The notes under the pieces: generated by a model
The model's database searches: none
Told to the model about the DNA's origin: nothing
What the model saw: only the letters and a program-made list of their open reading frames with translations
Position numbers and translations under genes: made by a program
In this document: positions 1 through 19,468 of the stretch, piece after piece
How the letters are laid out: each line of letters starts with the position of its first letter
Numbering within the stretch: position 1 is the first letter of the stretch
Assembly (NCBI RefSeq): GCF_019431375.1
Contig: NZ_CP080267.1
Location: forward strand, 794,080 to 818,079
From: Alcanivorax sp.
GTDB lineage: Bacteria; Pseudomonadota; Gammaproteobacteria; Pseudomonadales; Alcanivoracaceae
Length of the DNA: 24,000 bases
Reading direction: 5' to 3'

Positions 1-1153
1 AGCAGAACACTACCGAGCCGTAACAGTTGTCCGGCGGCAGCTGGTTGAGGTTGACGTTCTCCAGGTTCGCGCCTTCGCCCAGGGCGCTCAGGGCGTCGAG
101 CAGCCTCAGATCCACCGTCGCACTGGCGTTCTTGATCGCGGCATAGGGAATATTCATCCACCAGCCGCTGTTGGCCACCGCTGCGTAGCCGGTCTTGTCG
201 AAGGTGGGCCAGGCGACCTGCTCGCGCTGCAGGGACAGGAAGAAATCCCCGCTTTTGGAGGAGTCGAGCAGTACCTGGTGGATAAAGCGCAGGTTTTCCT
301 TCAGGTCGGCCGCGGCCGTGGTGCCGTTGAGGCTGCCGCTATACACATAGGCGGGGATATTGGCCAGGATCACGGCGTTCATGCGGGTGCCGCGGACAGG
401 CTGGAAGTAGGGATCCTGGATCTCGTTGCTGGTGTTGTTGTCCGGGTTGCCGTCGCAGTTGGCATGATCGGCGGTGGCGGTGTTGCCGAAGCAGATGGAC
501 TGATCGCCGAGAGCGGTACCCGCCAGAATGTTGGCGGACACCTCCAGGTTCAGGTTCCCGCTCAGCCGGTTGATGCCGGAATGGCAGGCGAGCGCGCCGC
601 TGCCGTCACCGGCCGAGGTATCGCAGGTGCCACCATGCTCCAGATTGACCTGGCCATTGCCGTAGAGGCGGCCGATGCCCAGCATGCCATCGGCAGTTTC
701 GAAGCCGATCTTGATGCCGGCGATCTCTCGCAGAGTCTTGCTGTCGGCGTTGCGTACGGCAAATTCCACATAGGGGCGCCGGGTTTTGAAATCGCTGGTG
801 ACCGGATCGCCGGGCTGATCACCGTTGCGTCCCATAAAACGCAGGTAATCGATGTCAAGATCGCAGGCATTGGCGACCAGGTTCTCGTTAGTGCCGCCAC
901 AACCGAGCTGTAGTCTGTCGATATTCAGATTCATGTCCAGATCGACGTTCAGGCCCGAGCGCATAAAGGTGAAGTCGGTGGTGCCGCCGGCGGTGCCGCT
1001 GGGGGCGATCTGGTCGCTCCAGAACAGGGCCTGCTGGCCGCTGATCTGCGCGAGCTGCGCATCGGCCATCCGCTCCATTGCCGCCACGGGCATGGACAGC
1101 GACGCCAGCAGTGCCAGGGCGGCGCTACGGCGCGCTGAGGGTTTAATAGCCAT
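1..1153 (-). CDS. Secreted protein of unknown function, 3'-partial (at least 384 codons; runs off the window start, so absent from the supplied ORF track)
   Basis: Manual scan found no stop codon in the minus frame from ATG 1153-1151 down to position 2. N-terminus MAIKPSARRSAALALLASLSMPVAA looks like a signal peptide and is followed by the box MERMADAQLAQISGQQ. The start overlaps the upstream gene stop by 11 nt. Confidence 0.75.
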   Translation of the reverse strand, partial: MAIKPSARRSAALALLASLSMPVAAMERMADAQLAQISGQQALFWSDQIAPSGTAGGTTDFTFMRSGLNVDLDMNLNIDRLQLGCGGTNENLVANACDLDIDYLRFMGRNGDQPGDPVTSDFKTRRPYVEFAVRNADSKTLREIAGIKIGFETADGMLGIGRLYGNGQVNLEHGGTCDTSAGDGSGALACHSGINRLSGNLNLEVSANILAGTALGDQSICFGNTATADHANCDGNPDNNTSNEIQDPYFQPVRGTRMNAVILANIPAYVYSGSLNGTTAAADLKENLRFIHQVLLDSSKSGDFFLSLQREQVAWPTFDKTGYAAVANSGWWMNIPYAAIKNASATVDLRLLDALSALGEGANLENVNLNQLPPDNCYGSVVFC

Positions 1154-1823
1154 AAATGCGTACCTTCCCGTCGATATCGATTTGCGTTTGCCGGCCCAGT
1201 TCGGCATCGGCGACGCGCACTCCGGCAAAACTGCCGTTGGCATCCGCCTGGAAGCCTGTACTGCCATATTCGATGGCGATGCGGCCGATTTCCAGCCCGA
1301 GGATGACGTCGGCCTCGAACACGCCCGCCGTGCCGGTAAAGGACAGCATCAGGGCCGGCAGGCCGTTGGGGTCGCAGCCGGCCAGCAGGCAGGTGCCGTT
1401 GTCGTCCTGGAAGCGGGTGGCGTCGTAGTAGGCGGTCGAGGTGGCCGGGTTGAAGGAGCCGTCGATGTTCAGGCCGTCGAGGAACAACCGGCCGAAGAAA
1501 TCCTTCAGTACTATCCACTCGCCGCCGCCGCCATCGCGGTTGGCGAATTTCAGCCCCAGCCGGCAGGGATTGCCGATGCCGGTGCAGGAGGACAGGCTGG
1601 CGAGAGGGGCGCCGTTTTCGTCCGCGTTGATGCGCAGTTCCAGCAAGGTGCCGACCCCCTCCCTGGCCACCACTCCGGCCAGGGCCGCGTCGCTCATCGG
1701 CACCAGGCCGGTGTCGATGCTACCCTCCGCCGCCACGGTTTCACACAGGGGGAGCAGCAGCATGACGACAGCGGCCAGGACCCGGCGGGCCCTGCCGACC
1801 GGAAAAAACAGTATGTTCATCAT
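1143..1823 (-). CDS. Secreted protein of unknown function (226 aa), aromatic C-terminus ...VRIYGY
   Basis: ORF track. Hydrophobic N-terminal segment ...RRVLAAVVMLLLPLCETVAA followed by the box LVPMSDAALAGVVAREG. ATGA start/stop overlap with the upstream gene at 1820-1823. Confidence 0.75.
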   Translation of the reverse strand: MMNILFFPVGRARRVLAAVVMLLLPLCETVAAEGSIDTGLVPMSDAALAGVVAREGVGTLLELRINADENGAPLASLSSCTGIGNPCRLGLKFANRDGGGGEWIVLKDFFGRLFLDGLNIDGSFNPATSTAYYDATRFQDDNGTCLLAGCDPNGLPALMLSFTGTAGVFEADVILGLEIGRIAIEYGSTGFQADANGSFAGVRVADAELGRQTQIDIDGKVRIYGY

Positions 1824-3430
1824 GGCCCCGCCCCCAGGCTGGTGATTTTCAGGTGCTGGATGAGCAGGCCCTCAATCCGGCCATCGCCGAGATTGACCGC
1901 GCTAAGTCCGGTGCGGGTCCGGGTAAGGGTGGGCGGGGGGTCGTTGTAGTTGCCGGAGGTATCGGGCTGGGTGGCGGTGGCGGTGAACGTGGACGCCTCC
2001 GTGGCCTTGATGAAAATAAAGCCGTCATCGGTGGCGGCGGAACTATTGCACAGCGTGCCCGCGGCGCCGCAGTTGGCCCCGTTGCCCGGGTACCAGTCTC
2101 CCCAGCGGATAAAGCCGTGGGTCTCGTGATAGCGCGACGGCCGCTCGGTTCGTTGATAACCGCAGCTTGCACCCTGATAGCGAGCGTCCACGCAACCCTC
2201 GCCAGTGCCGCCGTTCAGGCCCGGCAGGCTGTAGAAGTCGTTGTAGGCATTGTCCCGGTTCGGCAGGCGGGTCAGCTCGATCACGAAGTTGCCATCGCCG
2301 CCGGCGCCACTGCCGGGCACGTTATCGTCCAGAATCAGCGACTGGTAGAACAGCTGGCCCATCGGAATCCAGCTATTGACGTTGCGGAAGATCAACCCCG
2401 GCGCATCGCCAGTGCCGGTGCCGTTGTCGAACTCGGGCACCACGCCCAGGGCGTCGCCGCTGGCGGCGGTCTGGGCCAGACTGAAGCGGAAATCCCCGGA
2501 CAGGGCAATATTGAAGGTCATGCCGACGGAGCGATCAGCATCGTCCTGATTCTGGAACAGCCGGAACAGGGTGCCGCGGCGGACGGTTTCCTCGGTGAAG
2601 CTGGTGGGCCCCGGCGTGGAGGTGCTGTTGGTCGTGGTGCAGGTGCGCGGGGTACCGAATCCGCTGCAACCACCACCACCGCTGCCCGAGGTGGTGGTGG
2701 TGGTGGTTACCTGGGAGGTAGACACCAGCACATTGTTGACGTAGGTCTCCTCGGTGGTTTCGGTGGTGGTTTCCGCCGTGTACTGGGTGCAGGCAAAACC
2801 GCAGGAGGTGACGGTGGTGGTGGTGGTGGAATCCTTCGTTGTCACCACGTAGGTGCTTTCCCGGACAGTATCATCGACCACGGGCCGGCCGTTGATCAGG
2901 GCCTGGCTTTGCAGCAGGCCGTTGTTGGTGGCGCCGCTCTTGCCGGCTTCTATCTCGCCCCAGAACGACCAGCGGTAGGGGTCGGAGGCGGTGGGGCCGA
3001 CCATTTCCAGCACCGTCTTGGTCACCTCGGTGTTCTGGAAATCGAAGCCGGTCTTGTCGAACACCCGCAGCAGGTAGGGGTTGTCGAAAGGGGCAATGGT
3101 GGCGCCGGTGAGGGACAGGGGGCAGAGCGAATGACCGCAGGCCTCGCCGTTCCAGCCCAAGCCGCCGGCGCCACCCGCGCCCGATACCGTCAGGCCATAC
3201 CAGCGCAGATCGCCGCGCTGATAGCCGGCCCCGACACCCGGGTCCGTGCCGATCTGCTCGATATAGCCGGTGTTGCGCATCTGGAAGCGGAAATCCTCCA
3301 GCACCAGGGCGATACCCTCGCCGGTGACCGCCGCCAGGGCGTTGTCGGGCAGGGATTCGAGGGCACTGGCCGCTGTCCCGACGCTCAGGCCGCAGGCGAC
3401 GAGAAAGAGTTGCAGCTTGCTGATGTGCAT
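1820..3430 (-). CDS. Large secreted protein of unknown function with an internal Thr-rich low-complexity region (about 536 aa from ATG 3430)
   Basis: The ORF track gives 1820..3484, but that start is TTG. ATG at 3430 yields MHISKLQLFLVACGLSVGTAASA (signal-peptide-like) followed by LESLPDNALAAVTGEG. Thr/Gly/Cys-rich segment in the middle. Confidence 0.75.
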   Translation of the reverse strand: MHISKLQLFLVACGLSVGTAASALESLPDNALAAVTGEGIALVLEDFRFQMRNTGYIEQIGTDPGVGAGYQRGDLRWYGLTVSGAGGAGGLGWNGEACGHSLCPLSLTGATIAPFDNPYLLRVFDKTGFDFQNTEVTKTVLEMVGPTASDPYRWSFWGEIEAGKSGATNNGLLQSQALINGRPVVDDTVRESTYVVTTKDSTTTTTVTSCGFACTQYTAETTTETTEETYVNNVLVSTSQVTTTTTTSGSGGGGCSGFGTPRTCTTTNSTSTPGPTSFTEETVRRGTLFRLFQNQDDADRSVGMTFNIALSGDFRFSLAQTAASGDALGVVPEFDNGTGTGDAPGLIFRNVNSWIPMGQLFYQSLILDDNVPGSGAGGDGNFVIELTRLPNRDNAYNDFYSLPGLNGGTGEGCVDARYQGASCGYQRTERPSRYHETHGFIRWGDWYPGNGANCGAAGTLCNSSAATDDGFIFIKATEASTFTATATQPDTSGNYNDPPPTLTRTRTGLSAVNLGDGRIEGLLIQHLKITSLGAGP

Positions 3431-3543
3431 AGGGAGCCAGCCTGTTTTGTTATTATTGACTTGCCTGACCTTTCTTTTTACCAAATCGGCCCCCGGCTTG
3501 CAAGCCCGGCCCTGAAGGCCCTAAGGTCGGGCCTTGCCGCATT

Positions 3544-3631
3544 GACGGAAGGCGCCGGGGCGCCGGTGTAAGGGGCTCGTCGAAGCGGTGGAACTCCAGA
3601 CCGGCGCCCCGGGCGACGCCTTCCGGCCGTC
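3544..3631. repeat. Long GC-rich imperfect inverted repeat (possible terminator/attenuator or REP-like hairpin)
   Basis: ccggggcgccgg (3555-3566) pairs perfectly with ccggcgccccgg (3601-3612). ggaaggcg (3547-3554) pairs with cgccttcc (3617-3624). Loop of about 34 nt. Lies between the truncated paralogue and the 536-aa gene. Confidence 0.4.
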
Positions 3632-3840
3632 AGCAGAGCACTGCCGTGCCAGTTGTCCGGCGGCAGCGGGTTGTGGTTGACGTTCTCCAGGCTCGCGCCT
3701 TCGCCCAGGGCGCTCAGCGCGTCAAGCAGCCCCAGATCCACCGTCGCACGGGCGTTCTTGATCGCGGCATAGGGAGCATTTATCCACCCGCCGCTGTTGG
3801 CCACCGCTGCGTAGCCGGTCTTGTCGAAGGTGGGCCAGGC
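3632..3840 (-). pseudogene. 3'-terminal remnant of a paralogue of the gene at 1-1153, truncated by the IS3-family element
   Basis: 3632-3840 aligns to 1-214 with 14 substitutions and one 5-nt indel (my manual count). Homology stops exactly at 3840/3841, where the IS3-like sequence (TG...) begins. Encodes ...ANSGGWINAPYAAIKNARATVDLGLLDALSALGEGASLENVN... versus ...ANSGWWMNIPYAAIKNASATVDLRLLDALSALGEGANLENVN... Confidence 0.7.
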
Positions 3841-4411
3841 TGCTTCATTCTTATTTGTAGTGGCCTAATGAGTCCGGACACCAACGTAGGTGGTAACGTT
3901 ACCACCTTAAGCGAGGTGTCAGATAACCAGCAAACGACGTTCCTTGACTCCTGAGTTCAAGCAGAAAGCCGCCAGCCTGGTGCTGGATCAAGGCTACACA
4001 GTTCCCCAGGCCATCGCATCGCTTGGTGTCGTCGAGAGCGCGCTGCGGCGCTGGGTTAAGCAGCTTGAGGCGGAACGCCAAGGTGTTACCCCCCAAAGGC
4101 AAGGCCCTTACCCTGGAGCAGCGCCGCATTCAGGAGTTGGAGGCCCGTTGTGAACGCCTGGCCTTGAAGGCCATGGTGCACCGTCTATGCAGGCAAAGCA
4201 GGAGTTCGGCGGGCAGCCGCACGATACAAGGGGTGCTCAAGTGAGCAGGGGCTGGAAATCGGTCTTTTCAAGGTGCGCAGACTAATGGATGAATTGGGAC
4301 TGATTTGTAAGCAACCGGGCCGCATGCCTACAAGCAGGCAACTGTAGAGAGACAGGATATGCCGAACCATCTGGATGTTCATGCGGTGGTTTCTGCTAAG
4401 GAGTTATTTAG
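3841..4411 (+). mobile_element. IS3-family insertion sequence remnant (frameshifted orfA, internally deleted and 3'-truncated orfB)
   Basis: Starts with TG. Encodes ...SKRRSLTPEFKQKAASLVLDQGYTVPQAIASLGVVESALRRWVKQLEAERQGVTP, then continues in another frame after a C-run at 4088-4094 (KGKALTLEQRRIQELEARCERL). OrfB-like pieces follow (SAGSRTI..., GLEIGLFKVRRLMDELGLICKQPG..., YKQATVERQDMPNHL) across several frames. It ends at the IS5 left end. Confidence 0.8.
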
Positions 4412-5561
4412 GGAACCTCTGAAAAACTCCCCGACTTTGCCATAATCAGGGCTTTCTATCAGCCACTTTCCGGGAATGCCATGAGCAGCTGACTTTTGCC
4501 GAAGCCGAATACGAACACAAGAAGCGCAAGACCCGGCGGGAAGTGTTCCTTGAGAAGTTGGATCAGTTGCTACCCTGGAAGGCGCTGGAGTCCACGATTG
4601 CGGTCTATTACGCCTCCGGTAGCACTGGCCGGCCGCCGTATCCGCTCTCCAGCATGCTGCGCATTCATGTCATGCAGATCATCTACAACCTGAGTGATCC
4701 GGCGATGGAAGATGCCTTGTATGAGATCGAGTCTATGCGCCGTTTCGCAGGGATTCGGCTCTCTCGGGTTCCTGATGAGACAACGATCCTGAACTTCCGG
4801 CACCTGCTGGAGCAGCACACTCTTGGCAAGAAGCTGTTCAAGAAGATCAACCGTCAGTTGGCACGACATGGCCTGATGGTTCGGGAAGGCAGCATCGTTG
4901 ATGCGACGATTATCGACGCCCCCAGCTCGACGAAGAACAAGGAAAAGGCCCGTGATCCGGAGATGCATCAGACCAAAAAAGGCAATCAATGGCATTTTGG
5001 CATGAAGTGTCATATTGGCGTCGATGACACAGTGGGTCTGATTCATAGTCTTGCCACTACCGCCGCGAATGAGCATGACCTGACGGCATCAGACCAGCTT
5101 TTGCATGGCAAAGAGAAACGTGTCTGGGGAGACGCGGGTTATTGCGGTATCGAGAAACGCGAAGAGCACAAGAACCGTAAAGTGGATTGGTTTATCGCTG
5201 AGCGTCCTGGTAAGCGCTCCACGATGTCGAAGGTTGCGCTGGAATGCGAAACCATCAAAGCCAGCGTACGTGCCAAAGTGGAACATCCCTTCCGAGTGAT
5301 CAAAGGCATGTTCGGTTACAGCAAGGTTCGCTACCGGGGTCTGGCGAAAAATACCAACCGGCTCTATCTCCTGGCGGGGCTGCACAACCTGTTGAGGGTG
5401 AAACGGGTGCTTCTGCCCTAGGGGCAGTGCGCCTGATTGCCGCTAAAGTGCGGCAATCAGGCGAAAAAATGAACACTCAAGAGTGAATTGTGGCCTGAAT
5501 TTGATGGCAGAAGCCTGTTGATCATCGTAAAGGCGAAAAAAGCGAGTTATTCAGACCTTCC
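4412..5561 (+). mobile_element. IS5-family (IS5 group) insertion sequence, about 1150 bp
   Basis: Terminal inverted repeats ggaacctctgaaaaactc (4412-) and gagttattcagaccttcc (-5561), starting GGAA as in E. coli IS5. The internal DDE transposase is clearly collinear with E. coli IS5 InsH. Confidence 0.9.
4543..5421 (+). CDS. IS5-family DDE transposase (InsH-like); the N-terminal 20 codons lie upstream in the same frame without an in-frame ATG
   Basis: Strong similarity from memory to InsH: [85 protein letters not shown]. Codons [19 protein letters not shown] (4483-4542) are in frame, but the ATG at 4481 is in the +1 frame. Confidence 0.9.
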
Positions 5562-5593
5562 CTAACCCTTCGTCGGCTTGAAGATACCAACTA

Positions 5594-5874
5594 ATGGAAT
5601 TGTTCTGGACTCTCAAGGCAACAGACAACCGCGACGAAATTCATGAATACATCGAAACGGATAACCCTTCTGCCGCTTTAGCACTTGATGAATTTTTCTC
5701 GGCACGCGCGCTGCTCATCTGCTCGATCACCCGGACAGCGGCCGGGTCGGTCGTGTGTCCGGCACCAGGGAGCTGATTGTGCATCCACATTATATGCTGG
5801 TCTATGATGTACAGGGTACACGGGTACGGATACTGAGCGTCGTACATACAGCACGGCAATGGCCGCCTTTCTAA
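5594..5874 (+). pseudogene. parE: ParE/RelE-family toxin gene with a 1-nt frameshift
   Basis: Frame A encodes MELFWTLKATDNRDEIHEYIETDNPSAALALDEFFSARA... and stops at 5776. Frame B from about 5716 encodes HLLDHPDSGRVGRVSGTRELIVHPHYMLVYDVQGTRVRILSVVHTARQWPPF*, ending at 5874. Total length is 281 nt (not a multiple of 3). The shift must lie between 5692 and 5715. Confidence 0.7.
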
Positions 5875-5905
5875 AATGCATCATCGTTACTGCAAGGCAG
5901 ATCAA

Positions 5906-6109
5906 ATGCGCATCACTTTGACTATTGATGACCAGCTATATCAACAAGCCCTTGCCATGGCCGACCCAGGTGTTGGTAAGGCTGATTTGTTTCGTGAAGC
6001 CATGCGGACTTACGTGCGGGTTCAGGCGGCGAAACGCCTGGCGTCATTGGGCGCGGCGGCGCCGGAAATGCGAGATATTCCCCGGCATGGCGGAAGCGAT
6101 GATTTGTGA
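5906..6109 (+). CDS. vapB: VapB-family (PF09957-like) type II antitoxin, apparently orphan
   Basis: MRITLTIDDQLYQQALAMADPGVGKADLFREAMRTYVRVQAAKRLASLG...MRDIPR matches the MRTxIDIDDELxxxAl...E.V..AL..lv pattern of VapB antitoxins. The ORF track start at 5876 is trimmed to ATG 5906. No intact PIN-domain ORF follows. Confidence 0.65.
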   Translation: MRITLTIDDQLYQQALAMADPGVGKADLFREAMRTYVRVQAAKRLASLGAAAPEMRDIPRHGGSDDL

Positions 6110-6264
6110 CTGCTATGATCAAAGGGCTCCGTTTAGGTAAAACATCTCAATAGCTGGAGTAGCGTGCACTCTTCGTTGCTGGGGAATGACGTGATTGGCG
6201 GCTTTGGTCTGGACAGAATCGCGCCGCCGGCGCCGCTCCTCGCATGTTGCATGCCAACCACTGA

Positions 6265-6290
6265 GGTTCGCTTGCAAGCAAGCTCCTACA
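6265..6290 (+). repeat. REP element (ggttcgcttgcaagcaagctcctaca)
   Basis: Contains the perfect 10-bp palindrome gcttgcaagc plus the ctcctaca tail. The same sequence is at 9440-9465 and 22479-22504. About 35 bp of 3' sequence is also shared with the copy at 6552. Confidence 0.85.
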
Positions 6291-6364
6291 AACCCCTTAT
6301 GCACATGACGTGTGTACTCTCAGCGGCGACGCAGGACTCCCTCATTTTGACGAACTCATAACAT

Positions 6365-6521
6365 CGTCTTTCCGGACTTGATCCGGAATCTCCCTCTGCT
6401 GGCAGAGCCATTCGGAGAGGCCACGGTGGGTTGAAGGAGGTCCCGGGGCGACCAGCGCAGCGCAGAACAGACGAAGTCTGGCCCCGAAGGGGTGAGCGCA
6501 GCGAATAACCCCGGGATGACG
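6365..6521. repeat. 157-bp MITE-like repeat with terminal inverted repeats (copy A)
   Basis: Ends cgtctttccgg... and ...ccccgggatgacg. The right-hand ~85 bp is almost identical to copy B at 7768-7924. ORF-track ORFs 6356..6589(-) and 7759..7962(-) are its conceptual translations. Confidence 0.75.
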
Positions 6522-6551
6522 CCTGAAGGGGCTATTCGCAGGACAGCCCTG

Positions 6552-6574
6552 TCGCTTGCAGGCAAGCTCCTACA
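6552..6574 (+). repeat. REP element variant (tcgcttgcaggcaagctcctaca)
   Basis: Same family as 6265-6290. Also shares the downstream extension aaaccc.t.tgca.atga.gtgtgt..ctctcagc. Confidence 0.8.
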
Positions 6575-6629
6575 AACCCTTGCATGCATGATGTGTGTGT
6601 GCTCTCAGCCGGATTTATCAGCAGCGCCG

Positions 6630-7169
6630 TTAAAGCGAGGTCGGGAACAAGGTATCGAATTCCTGTTGGAAATCACTGTTTTCCGGGGAAATAGCCAGCC
6701 GTGCTTGCACCTCCACAATTAACCGTTGAGTCGTGGAGTAAAGCATGGGGCTGAGCTGGTGGAGAGTATTGAAGTGTTCGGCGATGATGGCGTAGTCGGT
6801 TTCGTAATCATGGGCGGCCATATTGCGTGCCATTCGGCTTTGTTGCCACAATTCAGCGGAATCCAATACACCCAGTTTTTCGTAAAAGACCAGCACCTTG
6901 AGGAAGCTGTCTGCGGGTTCACTCATCAGCAAAGCCGTATGACGCATGGCAGCTGCCAGGGTGTCTTGCAGTTTGGCGAAACGCTCATTGATTGCTGCGA
7001 GGGTTTCAAACAGGTCGACATCTTTGCGGTGCTTTTCAAGAAAGGGGCCGTGTAATGGCCAGTCGATCTTGCCTTCCGATTGGTGTAGAAACCAGGCGCA
7101 ACGCTGTAGAGCCACCAGCAAACCTGCCAGGTGGCGACGTTCATTATCCAGCATTTGTTGACTACTCAT
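6630..7169 (-). CDS. HEPN-domain protein (HI0074 / nucleotidyltransferase-substrate-binding-like), putative toxin of an MNT/HEPN pair
   Basis: R-x4-H-x-Y HEPN motif in SRMARNMAAHDYETDY. 179 aa. Lies downstream of a minimal nucleotidyltransferase gene. SD-like aggggg 7 nt before the ATG, and an in-frame TAG 12 nt upstream. Confidence 0.7.
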   Translation of the reverse strand: MSSQQMLDNERRHLAGLLVALQRCAWFLHQSEGKIDWPLHGPFLEKHRKDVDLFETLAAINERFAKLQDTLAAAMRHTALLMSEPADSFLKVLVFYEKLGVLDSAELWQQSRMARNMAAHDYETDYAIIAEHFNTLHQLSPMLYSTTQRLIVEVQARLAISPENSDFQQEFDTLFPTSL

Positions 7170-7180
7170 ACAAGCCCCCT

Positions 7181-7342
7181 ACGTGGGCCGCTTGCAAAAT
7201 TAGGCAACAGTTCGCGTCGCCAAAGCGCCCAGCTCTGCGTTGGAAAAGTTTGAAATAAGCCCACTATTCCTGCTCTTTTCCGCCTAGATCTGAACACTTT
7301 GGCTGCGCTCCTTTGTTACCGAATTTCACAAGCGGCCCACTA
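7181..7342. repeat. ~160-bp element bounded by ~24-bp imperfect inverted repeats, between the MNT and HEPN genes
   Basis: acgtgggccgcttgcaaaattagg (7181-7204) versus the reverse complement of ccgaatttcacaagcggcccacta (7319-7342). The 12-bp core gtgggccgcttg / caagcggcccac is perfect (7183-7194, 7329-7340). The right arm supplies the last codons and stop of the MNT ORF. Confidence 0.6.
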
Positions 7343-7628
7343 GCCTCTGAGATTTGCCCCTTGCCATGGATTCAAAATCCGTTGCAGGTCTGCCGGGTTC
7401 GCTGAACAGCAGGTCCACAGGCATGGAAAGCTCTTGTTCTAGCCTGAGTTTGAGTGCAGCCCTGGCAAGCAGAGGCACATGCTGCGGGCACTCAAGCAAC
7501 AGATCCAGGTCTCCACCACGCCGACTGTTGTCGAGACGCGAGCCAAACACCAGAACGCCAACCCCCTCGCCAAGACTGCCGGTGACGAGATCGCGGATGG
7601 TTTGTTGTTGTTCAAGGGTTAGGCGCAT
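7326..7628 (-). CDS. Minimal nucleotidyltransferase (MNT, HI0073-like), putative antitoxin of an MNT/HEPN pair
   Basis: GS-x(n)-D-x-D signature: VLVFGSRLDNSRRGGDLDLLLE. 100 aa. Upstream of and co-oriented with the HEPN gene. Confidence 0.8.
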   Translation of the reverse strand: MRLTLEQQQTIRDLVTGSLGEGVGVLVFGSRLDNSRRGGDLDLLLECPQHVPLLARAALKLRLEQELSMPVDLLFSEPGRPATDFESMARGKSQRLVGRL

Positions 7629-7767
7629 GTGAAGGGCTTGGTGGTTGATATGCCATCCATGTTACCCGGAGGTTGGCTTTTGGAGCAATCCAGGCACTGC
7701 GGTGGCTGTTACACCGTCCGATGCATCGGCTCGCTTTGGGGTAATAACATTTCCATGCTTATAGAGC

Positions 7768-7924
7768 CGTCATTCCGGGCTTGCCCCGGAATCTCCTCCG
7801 GTTGGCAGGGCCTTTCGGGAAGGTTGCGAGCGGCTGAGGGAGATCCCGGGGCGACCAGCGCAGAACAGAACAGACGAAGTCTGGCCCCGAAGGGGTGAGC
7901 GCAGCGAATAACCCCGGGATGACG
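7768..7924. repeat. 157-bp MITE-like repeat with terminal inverted repeats (copy B)
   Basis: cgtcattccgggc... and ...accccgggatgacg (TIR about 11/13 matching). Same length and orientation as copy A. Confidence 0.75.
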
Positions 7925-7949
7925 AGGTGTTCTGACTTATTCGCTGGGC

Positions 7950-8040
7950 GGTTCACTTGCAAGCAAGGTTATTCGCTTCGCTCACCCTACGGGCCGCACG
8001 GAACTACGTGCGTTACTCCGCTACGCTCCGTTCCTACAGG
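7950..8040 (+). repeat. REP element interrupted by a nested ~68-bp element (7973-8040)
   Basis: ggttcacttgcaagcaag | gttattcgcttcgctcaccctacgggccgcacggaactacgtgcgttactccgctacgctccgtt | cctacagg. The REP head and tail are separated by a sequence that recurs at 14543-14605. Confidence 0.6.
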
Positions 8041-8077
8041 AAAGGGGGTCATGAGCGGGAGTGTTTAAGGGATCTAG

Positions 8078-8369
8078 GGAGCCTCTGAATAACTCCTTGC
8101 GTACTCAGCGTGGCCTGAAGGGTGCAGCTGTTGTGTTTTGTCGCGACGGGCAGGGTGGTTCCCTTTCCTAGCGACAAAGCGCAGCAGATGTGCCCTTCAG
8201 GCCACGCCCTCCGGGTCTTCCAGGCTGGCCCGCACTCGTTGTTGCGTGTTGAAGGTGAAGAGCCGATGGATCGACATACACCTTCAAAATCGCGCCCTCT
8301 GTGCTCTGCGAGTATAGATTGCGAGCCAGCCTGAAAGACTGAGCATGCAAGGAGTTATTCAGAGGCTCC
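8078..8369. mobile_element. 292-bp MITE with IS5-family-type ends, flanked by a CTAG target-site duplication
   Basis: Perfect 23-bp terminal inverted repeats ggagcctctgaataactccttgc (8078-8100) and gcaaggagttattcagaggctcc (8347-8369). CTAG at 8074-8077 and 8370-8373. The ends resemble the IS5 copy ends (ggaaggtctgaataactc). No transposase-sized ORF inside. Confidence 0.8.
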
Positions 8370-8426
8370 CTAGAGTTCAGATCACTTTTGCTGCTGGCAG
8401 CCCGTAGTACAGACCAGTCAGGGGCA

Positions 8427-9143
8427 TCAATGGCCTTGTAATCTTCTCAGCCATGATTTGGCAGTGTCATTAATCAGAGAAGAGGCGAGCTCAGGTTCTA
8501 TCTGCATTTCATCGACTAGCCGCTCAACAGACTCTTCTGGTTTACAGGTAATGAGCTCCAGAGACTGGCGCAGTGAGCGAGAAATAACGGCCTCTCCATA
8601 ATGATTCACCGCAGCTTGCCAGGCGGAGTCAGGAATTCCGCCCCACTCTCTTCGCATCATGCAAAGATCAATCAGATCTTTATTACTGCTTCGATACCGA
8701 TCTGCATTGGCTAGGAGCTTGGTAGAAAAACAGCTTTCCTGTGCTACAAAAGGAACAGGGAAAAGTGAAGTACGGCTATCGGCCAGGATTCCCTGCTCAT
8801 CGAACTGGATAAGCTCCAGTTTTATTGGACGGCCGCTCCCATCGATAATGCTCCGTATGGCATCCCGATCAGCACGAATCTCACGGCCCTTATAAAGAGC
8901 CGGTTGTTTGCCTGGTTGGAAGATGTCTCCAAAGCTGTTCTGGGTAATGGAAGAACGAGCCGCTTTGTAGGACTCTCTGCCCACGCAGAACAAATCAATA
9001 TCAATGGATTCACGGTATTCGCCAAGTTCCATGGCGATTCGCGTACCACCACCAAACAGAATGTTGTACTCAATCAGGAAAGGCCCATTCAGGGCTTCGA
9101 GGATGCTCCAGATAGTTTGATGATGTGGCCTGAGCAGTTTCAT
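8427..9143 (-). CDS. AbiEii/AbiGii (DUF1814, MenT-like) nucleotidyltransferase toxin family protein, 238 aa
   Basis: N-terminal NTase motif FGGGTRIAMELGEYRESIDIDLF (GGT...R.S.DID). ATGA overlap with the upstream small ORF. Confidence 0.7.
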   Translation of the reverse strand: MKLLRPHHQTIWSILEALNGPFLIEYNILFGGGTRIAMELGEYRESIDIDLFCVGRESYKAARSSITQNSFGDIFQPGKQPALYKGREIRADRDAIRSIIDGSGRPIKLELIQFDEQGILADSRTSLFPVPFVAQESCFSTKLLANADRYRSSNKDLIDLCMMRREWGGIPDSAWQAAVNHYGEAVISRSLRQSLELITCKPEESVERLVDEMQIEPELASSLINDTAKSWLRRLQGH

Positions 9144-9361
9144 GCTGTCAGCATGACCCCATGTCCATACTTGGTTGCCAAACGAGTTATCATGGCCTTC
9201 TCTTCCGGTTTCAGCCGTTTCTGGTCCACATAACGCCAGCGGGTTTCATAGAGATGAAACGCCGCTTCCTCGGAGACAAGGCGGTCCGCTCGGTCCCACA
9301 TAATGAGATCCAGTTCGGGGTAGTATTCTCTGTCTATCAAATTTTCCGCCATACTTGTCAT
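9140..9361 (-). CDS. Small (73 aa) protein of unknown family, putative cognate antitoxin of the AbiEii-like toxin
   Basis: 4-nt ATGA overlap with the toxin start (9140-9143). No wHTH/AbiEi-sized domain. Assignment rests on position only. Confidence 0.5.
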   Translation of the reverse strand: MTSMAENLIDREYYPELDLIMWDRADRLVSEEAAFHLYETRWRYVDQKRLKPEEKAMITRLATKYGHGVMLTA

Positions 9362-9439
9362 ACCAAGCTATCCAGAAGACTACTTGCTCACTTTATCAGC
9401 AGCACGGTACGCAGAGCAATTGGGGCTTGTTAGCAGGGT

Positions 9440-9465
9440 GGTTCGCTTGCAAGCAAGCTCCTACA
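9440..9465 (+). repeat. REP element (ggttcgcttgcaagcaagctcctaca)
   Basis: Identical to the copies at 6265-6290 and 22479-22504. Lies just downstream of the prpD stop. Confidence 0.85.
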
Positions 9466-9482
9466 ACAACCCGAAGATGCTG

Positions 9483-10967
9483 TTAATGGGACAACATGTC
9501 CATAAATTCGTTGACTGGTTGAGACTCTAGCTCATCGCGGTCCTGGCACAACTCGAGGATACGTTCGGCTCTCCCCGACGGGAAACAGGTCAGCAGGTTC
9601 TGACGGAATTTGCTTTCCAGAACCGGGATGCCCTCTTCCCTGCGGCGACGGTGACCGATGGGATACTCTACGGCCACCTTGTCCGTGTGGGTGCCATCCT
9701 TGAAGAATATCTGGATGGCATTGGCGATGGAGCGTTTCTCCGGGTCGTGGTAATCCGCTGAATACTGCTTGTCTTCCTGCACCTTCATCTTATCGCGCAG
9801 GGTGTCGATAAGGGGGTGGTTTTTGTGGAAGTCATCCTCGTAGTGCTCGGCAGTGAGCTCACCGAATATCAGCGGTACGGCAACCATGTATTGCAGGCAG
9901 TGGTCCCGGTCAGCCGGATTGGCCAGCGCACCCTGTTTGGAAATGATGCGAATGGCGGAATCGTGGGTGGTGAGTTCGATGCTGTCGATCTGGTCCAGGT
10001 GATCCTTCACTTGAGGATGCAGAGTGACCGCCGCTTCACAGGCGGTCTGGGCATGGAACTCTGCCGGGAAGCTCAGTTTGAAGAGAATGTTCTCCATGAC
10101 GTAGGAGCCATAGTTTCGCTGAAAGCGGAATTTACGCTCCGCGTCGGGTTTTATCTGCTGGTCCTTGTTGGTCTTGGAAAACAGCACATCGTAGAAGCCC
10201 CACTGCTTTGCGGTCAGCGCACTGGGGATGCCCATTTCCCCTCTCAGCGCGATATCGGCCAGCCGCACGGCCCGGCTGGTGGCGTCGCCAGCGGCCCAGG
10301 ATTTTCGTGAGCCTGCGTTGGGGGCATGGCGATAGGTACGCAATGACTGGCCATCAACCCAGGCATGGGAAATGGCGGAAAGCAGCTGTTCGCGATTGGC
10401 GCCCATCATTTTTGCCGCCACGGCCGTGGACGCCACTTTCACCAGCACCACATGATCAAGCCCTACCCTGTTGAATGAATTCTCCAGCGCCAGTACGCCC
10501 TGTATTTCGTGGGCGCGGATCATGGCATCGAGCACGTCTTTCATGGTCAGCGGTGCCCTACCCTGCGCCACTCGCTTCTGGGAAAGGTGATCTGCCACCG
10601 CCAGGATCGCGCCCAGATTATCCGATGGGTGCCCCCACTCTGCCGCCAGCCAGGTGTCGTTATAGTCCAGCCAGCGAACAATGCAGCCGATGTCCCAGGC
10701 GGCTTTGACCGGGTCAAGGCGGTGCAGGGTGCCGGGAACCCGGGCAGCATGTGGGACCAGGGTGCCCTCCACCAGCGGCCCAAGGTGTTTGGTGCACTCG
10801 GGAAACCGCAGTGCCAACAGCCCACACCCCAGGGTATCCATCAGGCAGTGGCGCGCGGTGTCCCAGGCTTCTTCCGAGTCGATACGGTAGTCCAGCACAT
10901 AGTCGGCAATGGCCTGGATTTCCGGGTCGTAATCCGGGCGTTCGTTGCTATCGACGTTGGTAGACAT
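9483..10967 (-). CDS. prpD: 2-methylcitrate dehydratase PrpD (494 aa from ATG 10967)
   Basis: MmgE/PrpD-family sequence of typical length, in prp-locus context. The ORF-track start 11033 is trimmed to [24 protein letters not shown], which has SD aagagg 7 nt upstream. Confidence 0.9.
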
Positions 10968-11040
10968 GATCAAGCCTCTTATTCCCTGGCAAACCCTTTC
11001 TTGATGCAAGCAAGCATCATCTCCCACACACAAACCAGCG

Positions 11041-11556
11041 TCAGAAACAGTCGCCGGGGACCCGTACCCAGCCTTCCATCAGCACCCGTGCGCTGCGGCT
11101 CATGCTGGCCTTGGTGGCAGTCCACTGGCCGTTCACTTGCTGGGCGCCGGCACCGACGCGCAGGGTGCCGGAGGGGTGGCCAAAGGTTACACTGTCACGT
11201 TCGCCGCCACCGGCGGCAAGGTTAACCAGGGTGCCCGGCACTGCCGAGGCACTGGCAATGGCCACGGCGGCGGTGCCCATCATGGCGTGGTGCAGTTTGC
11301 CCATGGACAGGGCCCGCACCAGCAGGTCCACCTCACCTTCCCCAATGTCCTTGCCACTGGAAGCGGTGTAGGCCTTCGGTTTTGCCACAAAGGCAATTTT
11401 GGGGGTGTGCTGACGGGCTTCCGCTTCTTCGATGTTCTCGATCAGGCCCATGCGCACGGCGCCATAGGCACGAATGTAGTCCAGCACATAGTCGGCAATG
11501 GCCTGGATTTCCGGGTCGTAATCCGGGCGTTCGTTGCTATCGACGTTGGTAGACAT
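11041..11556 (-). pseudogene. Chimeric ORF: prpD codons 1-27 (with its RBS) fused in frame to the last 144 codons of prpF
   Basis: 11476-11569 is 100% identical (94 bp) to 10887-10980. 11041-11475 aligns to 12811-13245 (prpF 3' end). The junction reads ...LDY|IRAYGAV... Confidence 0.85.
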
Positions 11557-11615
11557 GATCAAGCCTCTTCTACGCTGGTGGAGGCTTTCAGGATGGGGAC
11601 GTAATCACGTTCAGG

Positions 11616-12032
11616 TCAAGTTTCAATAATAGCCATGGTCGCAGCAGCAAAACCCGTAAAATCATCAAGGTGATGCTTGGCGATAGCGAATACGATGTTC
11701 CAGTCAAGAACATCGTAATTATGGACTGCCATATTCCGAAAACCGACAGATTTCTTCAGCTTCTCGGACAACAATGAAGTGATGATTTCCAGCTGAGCGA
11801 GACGATCGAAGGTCTCCCCCATGGTATTGGGCGGCGGCACATCATGGTCCACCAACAAGTGCGCACCGATATCAACACATAACTGCACGGCGCGACTGAG
11901 ATTCAGAACCAGGATGTCCTGAATGTCGGGGTCATTTTCCAGCACTGAGGCGGTGTCCGGACGTTTGAGTTCCACACGCTTTATACAGCGACGTAAGGAT
12001 TCCAGCTTCCGTTCAATAATCAAGATATCCAT
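11616..12032 (-). CDS. hepT: HepT (DUF86 HEPN) toxin of an MntA/HepT module
   Basis: 138 aa. HEPN motif GFRNMAVHNYDVLDW near the C-terminus. 13-nt overlap with the upstream MNT gene. Confidence 0.85.
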   Translation of the reverse strand: MDILIIERKLESLRRCIKRVELKRPDTASVLENDPDIQDILVLNLSRAVQLCVDIGAHLLVDHDVPPPNTMGETFDRLAQLEIITSLLSEKLKKSVGFRNMAVHNYDVLDWNIVFAIAKHHLDDFTGFAAATMAIIET

Positions 12033-12409
12033 TGCTGTCTCCGCTCGGACAACAAACGGCGAATGGCGGGCAAAAAATCTTCGCTGTTATAGATATGGCG
12101 CTGTATCAGCGCAACATGTTGACTGTCTGAGCCTTTCAGCCGCTTACCATCCCTGAGAATCTCGCCCAAGAGCGGCTCTCCTGCCTGGTTAACGTCGACA
12201 AGATCCACCGGGCGCCCAGCAATACTTGCCAATTTGGCAATTATTTCCATTTTCCTGGGCGCGGAGAGAGGCGCGACCGTCTGAATCGCTACATCAAGGT
12301 CGCTTTGATACTTTTCGCTGCCCTTTGCCATGGAGCCAAAGACATAGGCAAGGCTCACGTCAGATTCGTGATCCAGGTAGTCTCTAACGTGTTCAAGGGT
12401 GGTAGCCAT
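12020..12409 (-). CDS. mntA: MntA nucleotidyltransferase antitoxin (129 aa from ATG 12409)
   Basis: AYVFGSMAKGSEKYQSDLDVAI (GS...D.D). The ORF-track start 12664 runs through REP repeats, so it is trimmed to MATTLEHVRDYL (alternative ATG at 12439). Confidence 0.85.
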   Translation of the reverse strand: MATTLEHVRDYLDHESDVSLAYVFGSMAKGSEKYQSDLDVAIQTVAPLSAPRKMEIIAKLASIAGRPVDLVDVNQAGEPLLGEILRDGKRLKGSDSQHVALIQRHIYNSEDFLPAIRRLLSERRQQWIS

Positions 12410-12650
12410 GCTCGCTCCGCTGGGGTTTGCGACATCCATGATGTTAGCAGAATACGAAGGTAGCAATAAGGTTTTCGCTTCACTGGCCGCTTTTGATTCG
12501 TTAGCCCGAGAGGAAGGCCTTGCCGGTGAGTTAGTGCTTTTGTGGGAGCACATGTTGGCCTGGCAAGGAACAACGCCCGGTATTATCTGGTGCCGTTCTG
12601 AAAAACCTTCTCTGCTCGGGCAATTTGTAAACCCAGCCTCGCTAACGCTC

Positions 12651-12770
12651 GGTTCGCCATGCAAGCATGGGCTCCTACAAAACCTGCCCCCACCGTAGGA
12701 AGCTGCTTACAGGCCAAACTCGCCGTTAGCCTCAAAGCGAAAGAATTCGCCTGCAAGCAACCTCCTACAG
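12651..12770. repeat. Cluster of three REP-family elements downstream of prpF
   Basis: ggttcgccatgcaagcatgggctcctacaa (12651-12680), inverted gtaggaagctgcttacagg (12695-12713), and ttcgcctgcaagcaacctcctacag (12746-12770). Confidence 0.75.
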
Positions 12771-12810
12771 TGGAGCGCTCCTAACAGGCTCTGTTTTTAC
12801 AAAAATCAAC

Positions 12811-13989
12811 TCAGAAGCAGTCGCCGGGGACACGTACCCAGCCTTCCATCAGCACGCGGGCGCTGCGGCTCATGCTGGCCTTGGTGGCGGTCCACTGGCC
12901 GTTCACTTGCTGGGCTCCTGCGCCGACGCGCAGGGTGCCAGAGGGGTGGCCGAAGGTGACGCTGTCCCGCTCGCCGCCACCGGCGGCCAGGTTAACCAGG
13001 GTACCCGGCACTGCCGAGGCGCTGGCAATGGCCACGGCGGCGGTGCCCATCATGGCATGATGCAGCTTGCCCATGGACAGGGCCCGGACCAGCAGGTCCA
13101 CCTCCCCTTCTCCAATTTGCTTGCCACTGGATGCGGTGTAAGCCTTGGGTTTTGCCACAAAGGCAATTTTGGGGGTGTGCTGACGGGCTTCCGCTTCTTC
13201 GATGTTCTCGATCAGGCCCATGCGCACGGCGCCATAGGCACGAATGGTCTCGAACCTCTGCAGCGCCTCCTTGTTTTCGTTGATGTCGCCCTGCAGCTCT
13301 GTACCTGTGTAACCGATATCTTCTGCGTTCACGAAAACCGTAGGAATACCGGCATTGATCATGGTCGCCGGAAAGGTGCCAACGCCGGGGACTTCAAGCT
13401 CGTCGACCACATTGCCGGTGGGGAACATGGCGCCGTCGCCATCTGCCGGATCCATGAAGTCTACCTGCACCTCTGCGGCCGGGAAGGTCACCCCGTCCAG
13501 CTCGAAATCACCGGTTTCCTGGACGTCACCGTTGGTGATCGGTACGTGGGCAATGATGGTTTTCTGGATATTCACCTGCCAGATGCGCACCACGGCAATG
13601 CCGTTCTCGGGAATCCGGTCGGCTGCGACCAGGCCATTGTTGATGGCAAAGGCTCCTACCGCCGCGGTCAGGTTGCCGCAGTTGCCGCTCCAGTCGATGA
13701 AGGGCTTGTCGATGGAAACCTGACCGAACAGGTAATCCACGTCGTGATCGGCGCTGTCACTTTTGGACAGAATCACCGTCTTGCTGGTGCTGGAGGTGGC
13801 GCCGCCCATACCGTCGGTGTGCTTGCCGTAGGGGTCCGGGCTGCCGATGACGCGCAGCAGCAGTTTGTCACGGGCCTCGCCGGGCACCTGGGCCACTTCC
13901 GGCAGATCGGTGAGGCTGAAGAAAACGCCTTTGCTGGTGCCGCCGCGCATGTAGGTGGCGGGGACTTTTATTTGGGGTGCATGGGGCAT
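12811..13989 (-). CDS. prpF: PrpF, 2-methylaconitate cis-trans isomerase (392 aa from ATG 13989)
   Basis: MPHAPQIKVPATYMRGGTSKGVFF... is a typical PrpF N-terminus, and the gene follows acnD. The ORF-track start 14058 lies in GC-rich repeats and is trimmed. Confidence 0.9.
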   Translation of the reverse strand: MPHAPQIKVPATYMRGGTSKGVFFSLTDLPEVAQVPGEARDKLLLRVIGSPDPYGKHTDGMGGATSSTSKTVILSKSDSADHDVDYLFGQVSIDKPFIDWSGNCGNLTAAVGAFAINNGLVAADRIPENGIAVVRIWQVNIQKTIIAHVPITNGDVQETGDFELDGVTFPAAEVQVDFMDPADGDGAMFPTGNVVDELEVPGVGTFPATMINAGIPTVFVNAEDIGYTGTELQGDINENKEALQRFETIRAYGAVRMGLIENIEEAEARQHTPKIAFVAKPKAYTASSGKQIGEGEVDLLVRALSMGKLHHAMMGTAAVAIASASAVPGTLVNLAAGGGERDSVTFGHPSGTLRVGAGAQQVNGQWTATKASMSRSARVLMEGWVRVPGDCF

Positions 13990-14029
13990 GGGGCTTTCCT
14001 GTTCTGTTGGCTTTGTGCTTCGTAGCGTA

Positions 14030-14069
14030 CCCCTCTCCCCCCGCCCCCTCTCCCGCAAGGCGAGAGGGG
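14030..14069. repeat. GC-rich palindromic repeat (cccctctccc...gcaagg.gagagggg type)
   Basis: The hairpin ccctctcccgcaaggcgagagggg recurs at 14137-14160, at 14521-14539 plus 14597-14614 (interrupted copy), and at 14683-14721. Confidence 0.7.
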
Positions 14070-14124
14070 CGCTTTCTTTTCCGGAGTTTGGGGTGACCTG
14101 CGGACCTCGCAGTTGCTACCCTGC

Positions 14125-14487
14125 CTATCTATTCAGCCCCTCTCCCTTTGTCAGAGAGGGATCAAGGGCACTGAAAATCACCTCCAGTACCGCTTCCGTA
14201 TTCTGCAAAATCTCGTTGTTCCAGAAACGCAACACCTGAAAACCTTGTTCTTTCAACCAGGCATCACGCTGTTTGTCGGTTTCACTTTCATTGTGCTGAC
14301 CGCCATCTGCTTCAACGATCAGCCGTGAATTGAAGTGCACGAAATCTGCTATATAAGGCCCTAACGGTTGTTGCCGGCGGAATTTCTGGCCGCTCAGCCG
14401 GTGGGCCCTCAGGTGTTTCCATAACAGTCGCTCAGCGTCTGTCATGTTGGTTCGCAAGTCCTTTGCGAAATGGTGGCGGTAGTCCAT
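14125..14487 (-). CDS. DUF559 (Vsr-like endonuclease fold) domain protein
   Basis: MTDAERLLWKHLRAHRLSGQKFRRQQPLGPYIADFV...LIVEADGGQHNESETDKQRDAWLKEQGFQVLRFWNNEIL is the classic DUF559 pattern. The C-terminal tail is encoded by a GC-rich repeat. Confidence 0.85.
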   Translation of the reverse strand: MDYRHHFAKDLRTNMTDAERLLWKHLRAHRLSGQKFRRQQPLGPYIADFVHFNSRLIVEADGGQHNESETDKQRDAWLKEQGFQVLRFWNNEILQNTEAVLEVIFSALDPSLTKGEGLNR

Positions 14488-14504
14488 TACCGGCCTCCTT
14501 TCGT

Positions 14505-14721
14505 TTTGTGCTTTGTAGCGCCCCCCTCTCCCTGTCCCTTACTCGCTTCGCTCGCCCTACGGGCCGCACTGCGTGCGTTACTCCGCAAGCTCCGTTCCCG
14601 CAAGGGGAGAGGGGACCTTTTAGATAGGCTTTGGGGTAACTGCAACGCTAGCAGTTTATCCCAAACTTCGGGAAAGAAAGCTCCCCTCCCCCCTCGCGGG
14701 GGAGGGGCCGGGGGAGAGGGG
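14505..14721. repeat. Composite GC-rich repeat block between the acnD stop and the DUF559 start, including a nested ~63-bp element (14543-14605)
   Basis: gttttgtgctttgtagcgcccccctctccc... parallels ggctttgtgcttcgtagcgtacccctctccc... at 14009-14040. ggctttggggtaactgca parallels gagtttggggtgacctgc at 14083-14100. The nested unit matches 7973-8040. Confidence 0.65.
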
Positions 14722-14727
14722 GCGGTT

Positions 14728-16429: not shown

Positions 16430-16477
16430 AGCCTGGGACTCTTGTTCAGGGGGAATCCTGGGTTTAAGGAGTGCGCT

Positions 16478-16543
16478 TTCGCGATGCGAGCATCGCTTCC
16501 CACAGGCGTAGTCGTCTGTGGGAAGTCATGCTCGCATGACGAA
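16478..16543. repeat. Convergent pair of REP-variant elements forming a long hairpin between prpC and acnD
   Basis: ttcgcgatgcgagcatcgcttcccacagg (16478-16506) and ctgtgggaagtcatgctcgcatgacgaa (16516-16543) are near reverse complements. Confidence 0.8.
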
Positions 16544-16547
16544 GCCT

Positions 16548-17678: not shown

Positions 17679-17760
17679 TGTTTATCTCCTTATGAATCTG
17701 TTTGTTTATCCCATAGAAGCCTGGCTGCAGGCGATTTCCCATCCTTCACCAGAATATGGA

Positions 17761-17784: not shown

Positions 17785-17801
17785 TTTAGGTGGCAGCGAA
17801 A

Positions 17802-19457: not shown

Positions 19458-19468
19458 AAAACAGCCCG

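Follow-up and report, generated by a model that had tools for sequence, protein, structure and literature searches.

A conserved four-gene module of exported proteins with a common leader-like box in Alcanivorax, and its linkage to the fil operon

At the left end of a 24,000-nucleotide stretch of the genome of an oil-degrading Alcanivorax sp. (assembly GCF_019431375.1, contig NZ_CP080267.1, positions 794,080 to 818,079; the whole stretch is called the window below), three consecutive genes encode exported proteins that begin in the same way. A signal peptide is followed by a related short segment, here called the box. What do these proteins have in common besides this beginning, and what is the box for? 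The original prediction saw here an operon of three genes for a candidate surface or fibre system. The genes, designated A, B and C, belong together with a fourth gene, D, to one conserved module; its products are exported by Sec and fall into four families that are uncharacterised and unrelated to each other. It is our preferred reading, with a probability of about 0.5, that these proteins, once exported by Sec, serve the Fil machinery as cargo or subunits, with a double-glycine-type leader as a tag that would be read by FilB, a C39-type peptidase.

Four exported protein families and their common box

All three genes lie on the minus strand. Gene A runs from 3430 to 1820 and encodes 536 amino acids (aa) from its ATG. 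Gene B runs from 1823 to 1143 (226 aa). Gene C occupies 1–1153, and its coding part of 384 aa, from 1153 to 2, is complete, with the stop codon off the window. A and B overlap in the ATGA at 1823–1820 (TGA of A at 1822–1820, ATG of B at 1823), and B and C overlap by 11 nt (TAA of B ending at 1143, ATG of C at 1153). The three open reading frames (ORFs) and both overlaps are thus confirmed in the sequence as predicted, and one translationally coupled operon of exported proteins, each with a box after its signal peptide, is supported. The extent of the operon needs correction at the left edge. C had been taken to be cut by this edge, but it is complete save for its stop codon, because an A. jadensis protein of 99% identity (P0022) likewise has 384 aa. 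Extension to the left with the near-identical contig L029 shows the end of C followed by gene D, which starts 14 nt further on. The order in L029 is A (538 aa), B (226 aa), C (384 aa) and D (694 aa), which places a 694-aa D just beyond the window and indicates an operon of four genes instead of three. B is 100% identical to a protein of an "Alcanivorax sp.", and window 1–4656 shows 98.4% DNA identity to an A. jadensis-type contig. A promoter and terminator scan of window 1–4000 found no promoter and nothing convincing, and Rfam gave no match in the window.

The A family has 131 representatives (50% identity clusters) in an exhaustive search among 1.84 billion proteins. In word-limited searches the C family came to 199 clusters, B to 21 and D to 15, none of them informatively named. 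Loci were fetched from ~24 distinct lineages, including Alcanivoracaceae, a Moraxellaceae metagenome-assembled genome (MAG), Agitococcus lubricus, unclassified Pseudomonadota MAGs and Acinetobacter baumannii. Every locus that spans the region contains all four families, with one member each. The gene order is permuted: ABCD, ACBD, BDAC, BACD and ABDC were observed, as well as CABD with a FilA-like gene in A. baumannii. The neighbourhood comparison that had been recommended therefore shows A–D staying together across ~24 lineages in varying order. The only family member seen outside the four-gene module is a gene for 474 aa on the 177-kb plasmid p1_060092 of Acinetobacter cumulans (L033, 8932–10356), which matches the C profile with E 1e-76 and has no A, B or D nearby.

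The signal peptides were judged by eye from the sequence (n-region, core and cleavage site). The signal peptide of A consists of MHISK and LQLFLVACGLSVGTAASA, with a predicted cut before LESL. That of B consists of MMNILFFPVGRARR and VLAAVVMLLLPLCETVAA, with a predicted cut before EG, and that of C of MAIKPSARRS and AALALLASLSMPVAA, with a predicted cut before MERM. All three combine a basic n-region with a hydrophobic core and an AxA-type site, and the box begins 0–8 residues further on. The box of A (LESLPDNALAAVTGEG; 3314–3361, minus strand) is at the predicted mature N-terminus. The boxes of B (LVPMSDAALAGVVAREG; 1656–1706, minus strand) and C (MERMADAQLAQISGQQ; 1031–1078, minus strand) were located by the orthologue consensus and a regular expression. 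Anchored on the conserved Gly, the consensus is AxA at the cleavage site followed by [LM]xxLxDxxLxxVxG[QRAE]xG and then by a beta-strand of alternating hydrophobic residues, and the four families do not differ in it. In structural terms, the box is read as an amphipathic helix with V-x-G at its end, ahead of the strand.

Three lines of evidence indicate that the shared box is real and beyond chance. It is kept in orthologues down to ~30% identity. The regular expression matches 97 of the 920 ORFs of the fetched loci, and all but ~5 of the 97 are members of A–D. In the profile comparison with hhalign, the four families match each other with a probability of 87–95% (E 1e-6 to 1e-8). This mutual similarity is confined to the N-terminal ~50 columns, that is, to the signal peptide and the box, so that A, B and C cannot be called paralogues as had been suggested. 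The retention of this segment and the linkage of the genes in orthologues, the loss of which would have counted against the original prediction, are both observed.

As anticipated, no family can be assigned with confidence. Searches of A, B and C with Pfam and NCBIfam found nothing besides matches of 14–18 bits to DUF6160 (PF19657), below its gathering cutoff of 27 bits, and NCBIfam gave no match at E<=1. D orthologues pass the DUF6160 cutoff with 32.8 bits, and the domain is also detected in 40 of the 111 C homologues (E<=0.01). Judged by these profiles, the box appears in A, B and C as a weak DUF6160 match, and the link to DUF6160 is real at the profile level.

Beyond the box, each family has its own features. 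A contains two conserved regions (residues 1–188 and 285–536) and the conserved C-terminus NLGDxRIEGLLIQHLKITSLGA. The Thr/Ser/Gly-rich low-complexity insert between them (residues ~189–284; 2579–2866, minus strand) is absent from most orthologues, which have 435–450 aa. Strains with 100% identity in B share only 92–95% in A. The insert varies between otherwise near-identical strains and may be a hypervariable, possibly glycosylated linker. B has four conserved Cys and ends in YGF or YGY (for example VRVYGF) in all 20 orthologues. C has eight conserved Cys and the C-terminus NCYGSxxFC, and the D family ends in the conserved IPSGQWYSSITLK.

Structure prediction and Foldseek, both suggested earlier as checks, gave different outcomes for C and B. 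The AlphaFold model of C, built with 111 homologues, is confident and all-beta (predicted local distance difference test, pLDDT, 87.5; predicted template modelling score, pTM, 0.81), and the box is modelled as a short helix before the first strand, with low confidence (pLDDT ~60). Foldseek found no counterpart of the C model in the PDB (best E 0.13, TM ~0.1). The model of B from 16 sequences is unreliable (pLDDT 39). PDB profile searches with A, B, C and D detected no sequence relative.

The fil operon and the double-glycine pattern of the box

The original prediction suggested a resemblance of the box to DUF6160 and FilA-like proteins of "Fil" loci. This link proved correct. FilA, encoded in the Acinetobacter fil operon (FilA–FilF; a putative pilus by annotation), has the same signal peptide and box with DUF6160, and an orthologous operon lies ~16 kb upstream of A–D on the same strand, partly inside the window. 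At the right end of the window (22519–24000, minus strand; N-terminus off window) there is a homologue of FilD, an outer-membrane barrel of the FadL/TodX family (Toluene_X, 219.7 bits), which is 49% identical over 494 aa to FilD of A. baumannii (524 bits). Two lipoprotein genes follow on the same strand. The first (21549–22427, 292 aa, lipobox LAAC) is assigned to FilE by position only, as its similarity to FilE is not significant (E 0.011). The second (19549–21504, 651 aa, lipobox LAGC) resembles FilF in size, position and lipoprotein nature, with no significant sequence similarity. Homologues of this 651-aa protein precede the prp genes in L027 and L028.

Contig L035, which is 99.5% identical to window 15431–24000, extends the operon upstream. 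It encodes FilA (275 aa, DUF6160, box MEALEDSALSGVTGQDG), FilB (269 aa, Peptidase_C39, Cys motif YDYSCGSAAL, His motif HFVVL), a TPR-sulfotransferase protein, FilC and FilD. Alcanivorax FilA–D are 36–50% identical to the fil proteins of A. baumannii (FilA 36%, FilB ~50%). The minus-strand layout is therefore filA-(TPR/sulfotransferase)-filBCDEF, gntR-prpB-prpC-acnD-prpF-prpD, mobile debris and A-B-C-D. The same order of fil, prp and A–D was observed in 4 of the 4 loci whose DNA reaches beyond gntR (the window, L017, L027 and L028). The A. baumannii fil operon has no counterpart of the 632-aa TPR-sulfotransferase protein between filA and filB (L035, 3349–5247), for which Fil components or a glycan might be the target of modification.

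In A. baumannii, the six fil genes are listed in Suppl. Table S3 of PMC4751259. Pfam detects DUF6160 in FilA (36.9 bits), Peptidase_C39 in FilB, Toluene_X (FadL/TodX) in FilD (212.9 bits) and FilE_C in FilE. FilC and FilF have no Pfam match, and FilF is a lipoprotein. A search of a plasmid collection with C by tblastn found A. baumannii chromosomes, filed there as plasmids, one of which carries a cluster of C (492 aa), A (677 aa), B (241 aa), D (816 aa) and, at its end, a FilA-like protein (317 aa). The E-values to the hidden Markov models (HMMs) of the families are 8e-79 for C, 5e-24 for A, 1e-12 for B and 2e-33 for D. Two A. baumannii annotations are likely to be wrong: the D homologue is called "heme utilization protein" (L032, 13388–15838) and FilD "long-chain fatty acid ABC transporter" (L034, 6773–8437). 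Frameshifts seem to have split both filB and filE in strain VB31459.

Among the Fil proteins of A. baumannii and Alcanivorax, only FilA matches the HMMs of A–D, at its N-terminus, and the box is shared with FilA with a probability of 73–97% in the profile comparison. Box-trimmed profiles of A–D against the Fil proteins gave nothing, and A, B and C have no homologue among FilA–F beyond the box. The NCBIfam model of FilA as a pilus protein (NF050077; whole-protein cutoff 220 bits) gives D orthologues 19–35 bits, at the N-terminus only and below the cutoff. The A–D module encodes no peptidase, barrel or lipoprotein of its own, as judged by Pfam and NCBIfam.

C39 peptidases cleave double-glycine leaders, the consensus of which is LSxxELxxIxGG. 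As judged from its sequence, the box has the pattern of such a leader. Relative to its conserved Gly, the box is hydrophobic at -10, -5 and -2, with Asp at -8, and this fits the leaders when the box Gly is set at leader position -2. The leader pattern (hydrophobic at -12, -7 and -4; Gly at -2) is found in the consensus L..L.D..L..V.G of A, B, C, D and FilA. The leaders of class II bacteriocins, microcins and competence peptides, which are handled by peptidase-containing ATP-binding cassette (ABC) transporters (PCAT), have these hydrophobic positions, G at -2 and, in many cases, an acidic residue near -8. Their C39 peptidase, too, has a counterpart that is genetically linked to A–D. A matrix of 12 columns made from A–D boxes only was compared in a fixed register with 17 classical leaders, each with 2000 shuffles. 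It beats the shuffles for 16 of the 17 (p<=0.025), 15 of them at p<=0.005. There are also differences. The leader in A–D follows a Sec signal peptide, so that processing outside the cytoplasm would be needed. The cargo is large (226–700 aa) and folded, unlike the peptides of the classical systems, and FilB stands alone, whereas the peptidase of PCAT forms a domain within the ABC transporter.

A proposed pathway and its alternatives

If A–D are cargo or subunits of the Fil machinery, the following pathway may be proposed. Sec would export A–D, and signal peptidase I would take off the signal peptide. The exposed box would then be recognised by FilB on the periplasmic side and probably cut after G-x. 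Processing is placed after export because cutting in the cytoplasm would remove the Sec signal from a leader-tagged protein. A–D would be handed to the Fil outer-membrane components (FilD, FilC/E/F) and end on or outside the cell surface, where they may act as accessory, tip or alternative subunits beside FilA, the presumed Fil subunit. What is directly shown are A–D as genes with export signals, the box that they share and its resemblance to a leader, the strict co-occurrence of the four families and their linkage to a complete fil operon.

A similar arrangement is known in the Pseudomonas Fap system (FapA–F), which has Sec-exported subunits and a dedicated outer-membrane barrel, and in which FapD, a Sec-exported C39 peptidase active in the periplasm, is needed for secretion through this barrel (PMC5557850). 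The substrate of FapD is still unknown (PMC5557850). The Fil barrel differs in being of FadL/TodX type and not of FapF type, and there are no Asn/Gln-rich amyloid repeats here. Fap substrates have no recognisable leader, whereas here the candidate element is explicit and common to five families. The sharing of a motif at the mature N-terminus by different subunits is also reminiscent of chaperone-usher pilins, whose N-terminal extension serves as the donor strand. In contrast to these pili, the module shows no PapD-like chaperone, no usher and no pilin fold: Pfam and NCBIfam found no such family in it or its neighbours, and the C model has no PDB match.

Several observations weigh against the assignment of A–D to the Fil machinery. 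With DUF6160, the proteins of the window reach only 16.0 (A), 14.4 (B) and 17.6 bits (C), all below the cutoff. The residue after the box Gly, at leader position -1, is mostly Q, R, E or A (A or E in the A family; mostly Q or R in B, C, D and FilA), where G, A or S would be canonical. The 17 leader sequences of the matrix comparison were entered by hand, so that this result is supporting and not decisive. The hydrophobic segment with which FilB opens (MLTSMLGVALIYFAA) comes immediately behind an upstream stop codon and has no basic n-region, so that the topology of FilB is uncertain. In the A. baumannii genome, the canonical fil operon is ~122 kb away from the C-A-B-D cluster, and in L009, L040 and L041 no fil genes were found within 7–10 kb of A–D. 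The candidate relation of D to FilA beyond the box was rejected, as the similarity is not significant after box trimming. The word "pilus" is an annotation only in the case of Fil: the literature reports that Fil is expressed in pellicles and outer-membrane vesicles and has served as a vaccine antigen. The topology of FilB, the cleavage, the export route, the surface location and the formation of a fibre are steps that we infer.

The loci without nearby fil genes (L009, L040 and L041) would be expected if A–D were a self-contained periplasmic or outer-membrane complex that works without Fil. Its four subunits would be docked by the box, through helix or strand complementation, and it would help the capture or uptake of hydrophobic substrates in hydrocarbon and lipid degraders. 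The strict four-way co-occurrence in permuted order, the occurrence in Alcanivoracaceae and the lipolytic Agitococcus, and the recurrent neighbours (prp in at least nine loci, AraC-type regulators in four lineages, alkB in two lineages) are in line with this idea, as is the pLDDT of ~60 of the box in the C model, which is expected of a partner-dependent segment. Such a complex is conceivable, but we consider its probability rather low. The alkB island is an insertion, as L039 indicates, the host genomes are rich in genes of lipid and hydrocarbon catabolism anyway, and no lipid-binding or transport domain was detected in A–D by Pfam, NCBIfam or PDB profile searches. The match between the box and double-glycine leaders and the presence of the box in FilA would also be left unexplained.

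Two further ideas are improbable. The original prediction compared the aromatic terminus of B to that of outer-membrane beta-barrels. The aromatic end itself stands, being present in 20 of 20 orthologues; the barrel idea is built on this end and did not gain support. As a small barrel, B would anchor or export A, C and D in a usher-like manner, with its terminus as the targeting signal for the beta-barrel assembly machinery (BAM), and its mature part of ~190 aa has stretches in which hydrophobic and polar residues alternate. However, Pfam and NCBIfam find no outer-membrane-protein family in B, four conserved Cys are unusual for a barrel, and the AlphaFold model is too unreliable to help. The FilA-like protein of the second A. 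baumannii cluster (Ab5) also ends in SGF, which suggests that the C-terminal motif of B may be a subunit feature and not a BAM signal; both FilA proteins end in GH. It is likewise doubtful that the box is a mere extended export signal, which would tune the handling by Sec and signal peptidase, or be a pro-piece removed by a general protease, in four proteins that act independently. It is true that in each protein the box adjoins the predicted site of signal peptidase and that the similarity does not extend past the box. Against this, the box is confined to the A–D families and FilA among 920 neighbouring ORFs and co-occurs with a dedicated C39 peptidase, and the four-way linkage and overlapping reading frames argue for a joint function.

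Surroundings of the module and its meaning

Between the fil operon and A–D lies the methylcitrate (prp) operon (9483–19457, minus strand), which consists of gntR, prpB, prpC, a damaged acnD, prpF, an MNT/HepT pair, a prpF fragment and prpD. The prp genes precede A–D in at least nine loci. This linkage is strongly conserved, and we read it tentatively as synteny of fil and A–D and not as a metabolic link. A functional link to alkB was considered and rejected. The AraC-alkB-rubredoxin block that follows D in A. jadensis is missing in L039, and it is regarded as an insertion because L039 has A–D directly between prpD and ppsR.

AraC-family regulators flank A–D in four lineages, in varied orientation (L029, 6778–7845; L040, 6485–7630; L041, 6515–7537; L007, 8221–8637). 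Three of the four contain an Arabinose_bd domain, and that of L007 is a 138-aa ORF with a helix-turn-helix domain only. These genes are candidate regulators of the module. In five lineages, A–D adjoin a protein of 1100–1340 aa with a di-haem cytochrome c peroxidase (MauG-like) domain, FG-GAP repeats and an ASPIC/UnbV domain (L011, 3564–6860; L014, 4696–8607; L015, 14368–17766; L019, 14023–18048; L016, 6526–7161).

Just upstream of A there is a remnant of a second copy of gene C (3628–3861, minus strand), which matches C residues 307–384 with 73% in tblastn. Window 3632–3840 is a 91%-identical DNA copy of window 1–214, the 3' end of C. The terminal NCYGSxxFC is lost in the remnant (NWHGS, with read-through to 3478), and there is no box. 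Its 5' side is cut at ~3866 by the end of an element of the IS3 family of insertion sequences (IS). The original prediction had described an IS-truncated fourth paralogue at 3632–3840. It is indeed an IS-truncated copy, but of the 3' part of C and not of a box-bearing N-terminus. The remnant is an old partial duplication of the 3' end of C placed upstream of A, and A. jadensis contigs carry both this remnant and its junction with the IS. The IS debris (3867–5500, plus strand; boundaries by eye) consists of an IS3-family left end with an orfA fragment (3944–4153), interrupted by an IS5-family DDE transposase gene (4543–5421).

Small ORFs resembling toxin-antitoxin genes are located near 5594–6109. 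The region 5500–9200, between prpD and the IS elements, contains small mobile or defence-like genes, including an AbiEii toxin (9143 to 8427) and a nucleotidyltransferase fragment (7628 to 7326), as well as internal repeats (7768–7924 vs 6365–6521, 85%). The toxin-antitoxin pair of MNT/HepT type between prpF and prpD (11028–12664, minus strand) consists of a nucleotidyltransferase (12664 to 12020) and HepT (12032 to 11616). Next to the pair are two repeats, one a 449-bp duplicate of the 3' end of prpF (11028–11476 vs 12799–13246, 93%) and the other of 103 bp (10887–10989 vs 11476–11578, 97%), which flank it. The acnD gene (14711–16429, minus strand) lacks ~930 bp present in L035 (16078–17008; gene region 15081–17672) and falls into two ORFs (340 aa and 228 aa), so that it is probably a pseudogene in this strain. 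A 26-nt intergenic sequence, GGTTCGCTTGCAAGCAAGCTCCTACA, is found three times with perfect identity (6265–6291, 9439–9466 and 22478–22504) and looks like a repeat of the repetitive extragenic palindromic (REP) type.

No characterised family accommodates the A–D module. It adds four families to the uncharacterised Fil-type system, and this extension is new, rare and yet widespread. In the searchable literature there is no mechanistic work on Fil or DUF6160, and DUF6160 is mentioned in a single paper, in passing; as far as this literature shows, a double-glycine-type leader that follows a Sec signal and has a C39 peptidase of the stand-alone kind and a barrel of FadL type genetically linked to it is undescribed. 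We propose only tentatively that the DUF6160 box may be a periplasmic double-glycine leader. A Sec signal and a C39-read leader would then constitute a distinct two-step pathway of Fil type, which might move folded or foldable proteins towards the surface by a stand-alone C39 peptidase and a FadL-family barrel, and A–D might be its multi-protein cargo, building a surface structure in hydrocarbon degraders and Acinetobacter.

The box offers a concrete and testable substrate signal for periplasmic C39 peptidases, of which the best studied, FapD, has an unknown target (PMC5557850), and it ties DUF6160, a Pfam domain of unknown function, to that signal. The confidently predicted all-beta structure of C has no counterpart in the PDB. 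The linkage to FilD suggests that a FadL-type barrel may act in protein export. The Fil system is enlarged by four new protein families that are also carried by A. baumannii, in which FilF is a vaccine candidate (PMC4751259). For Alcanivorax, the module provides candidate surface proteins that could matter at oil-water interfaces.

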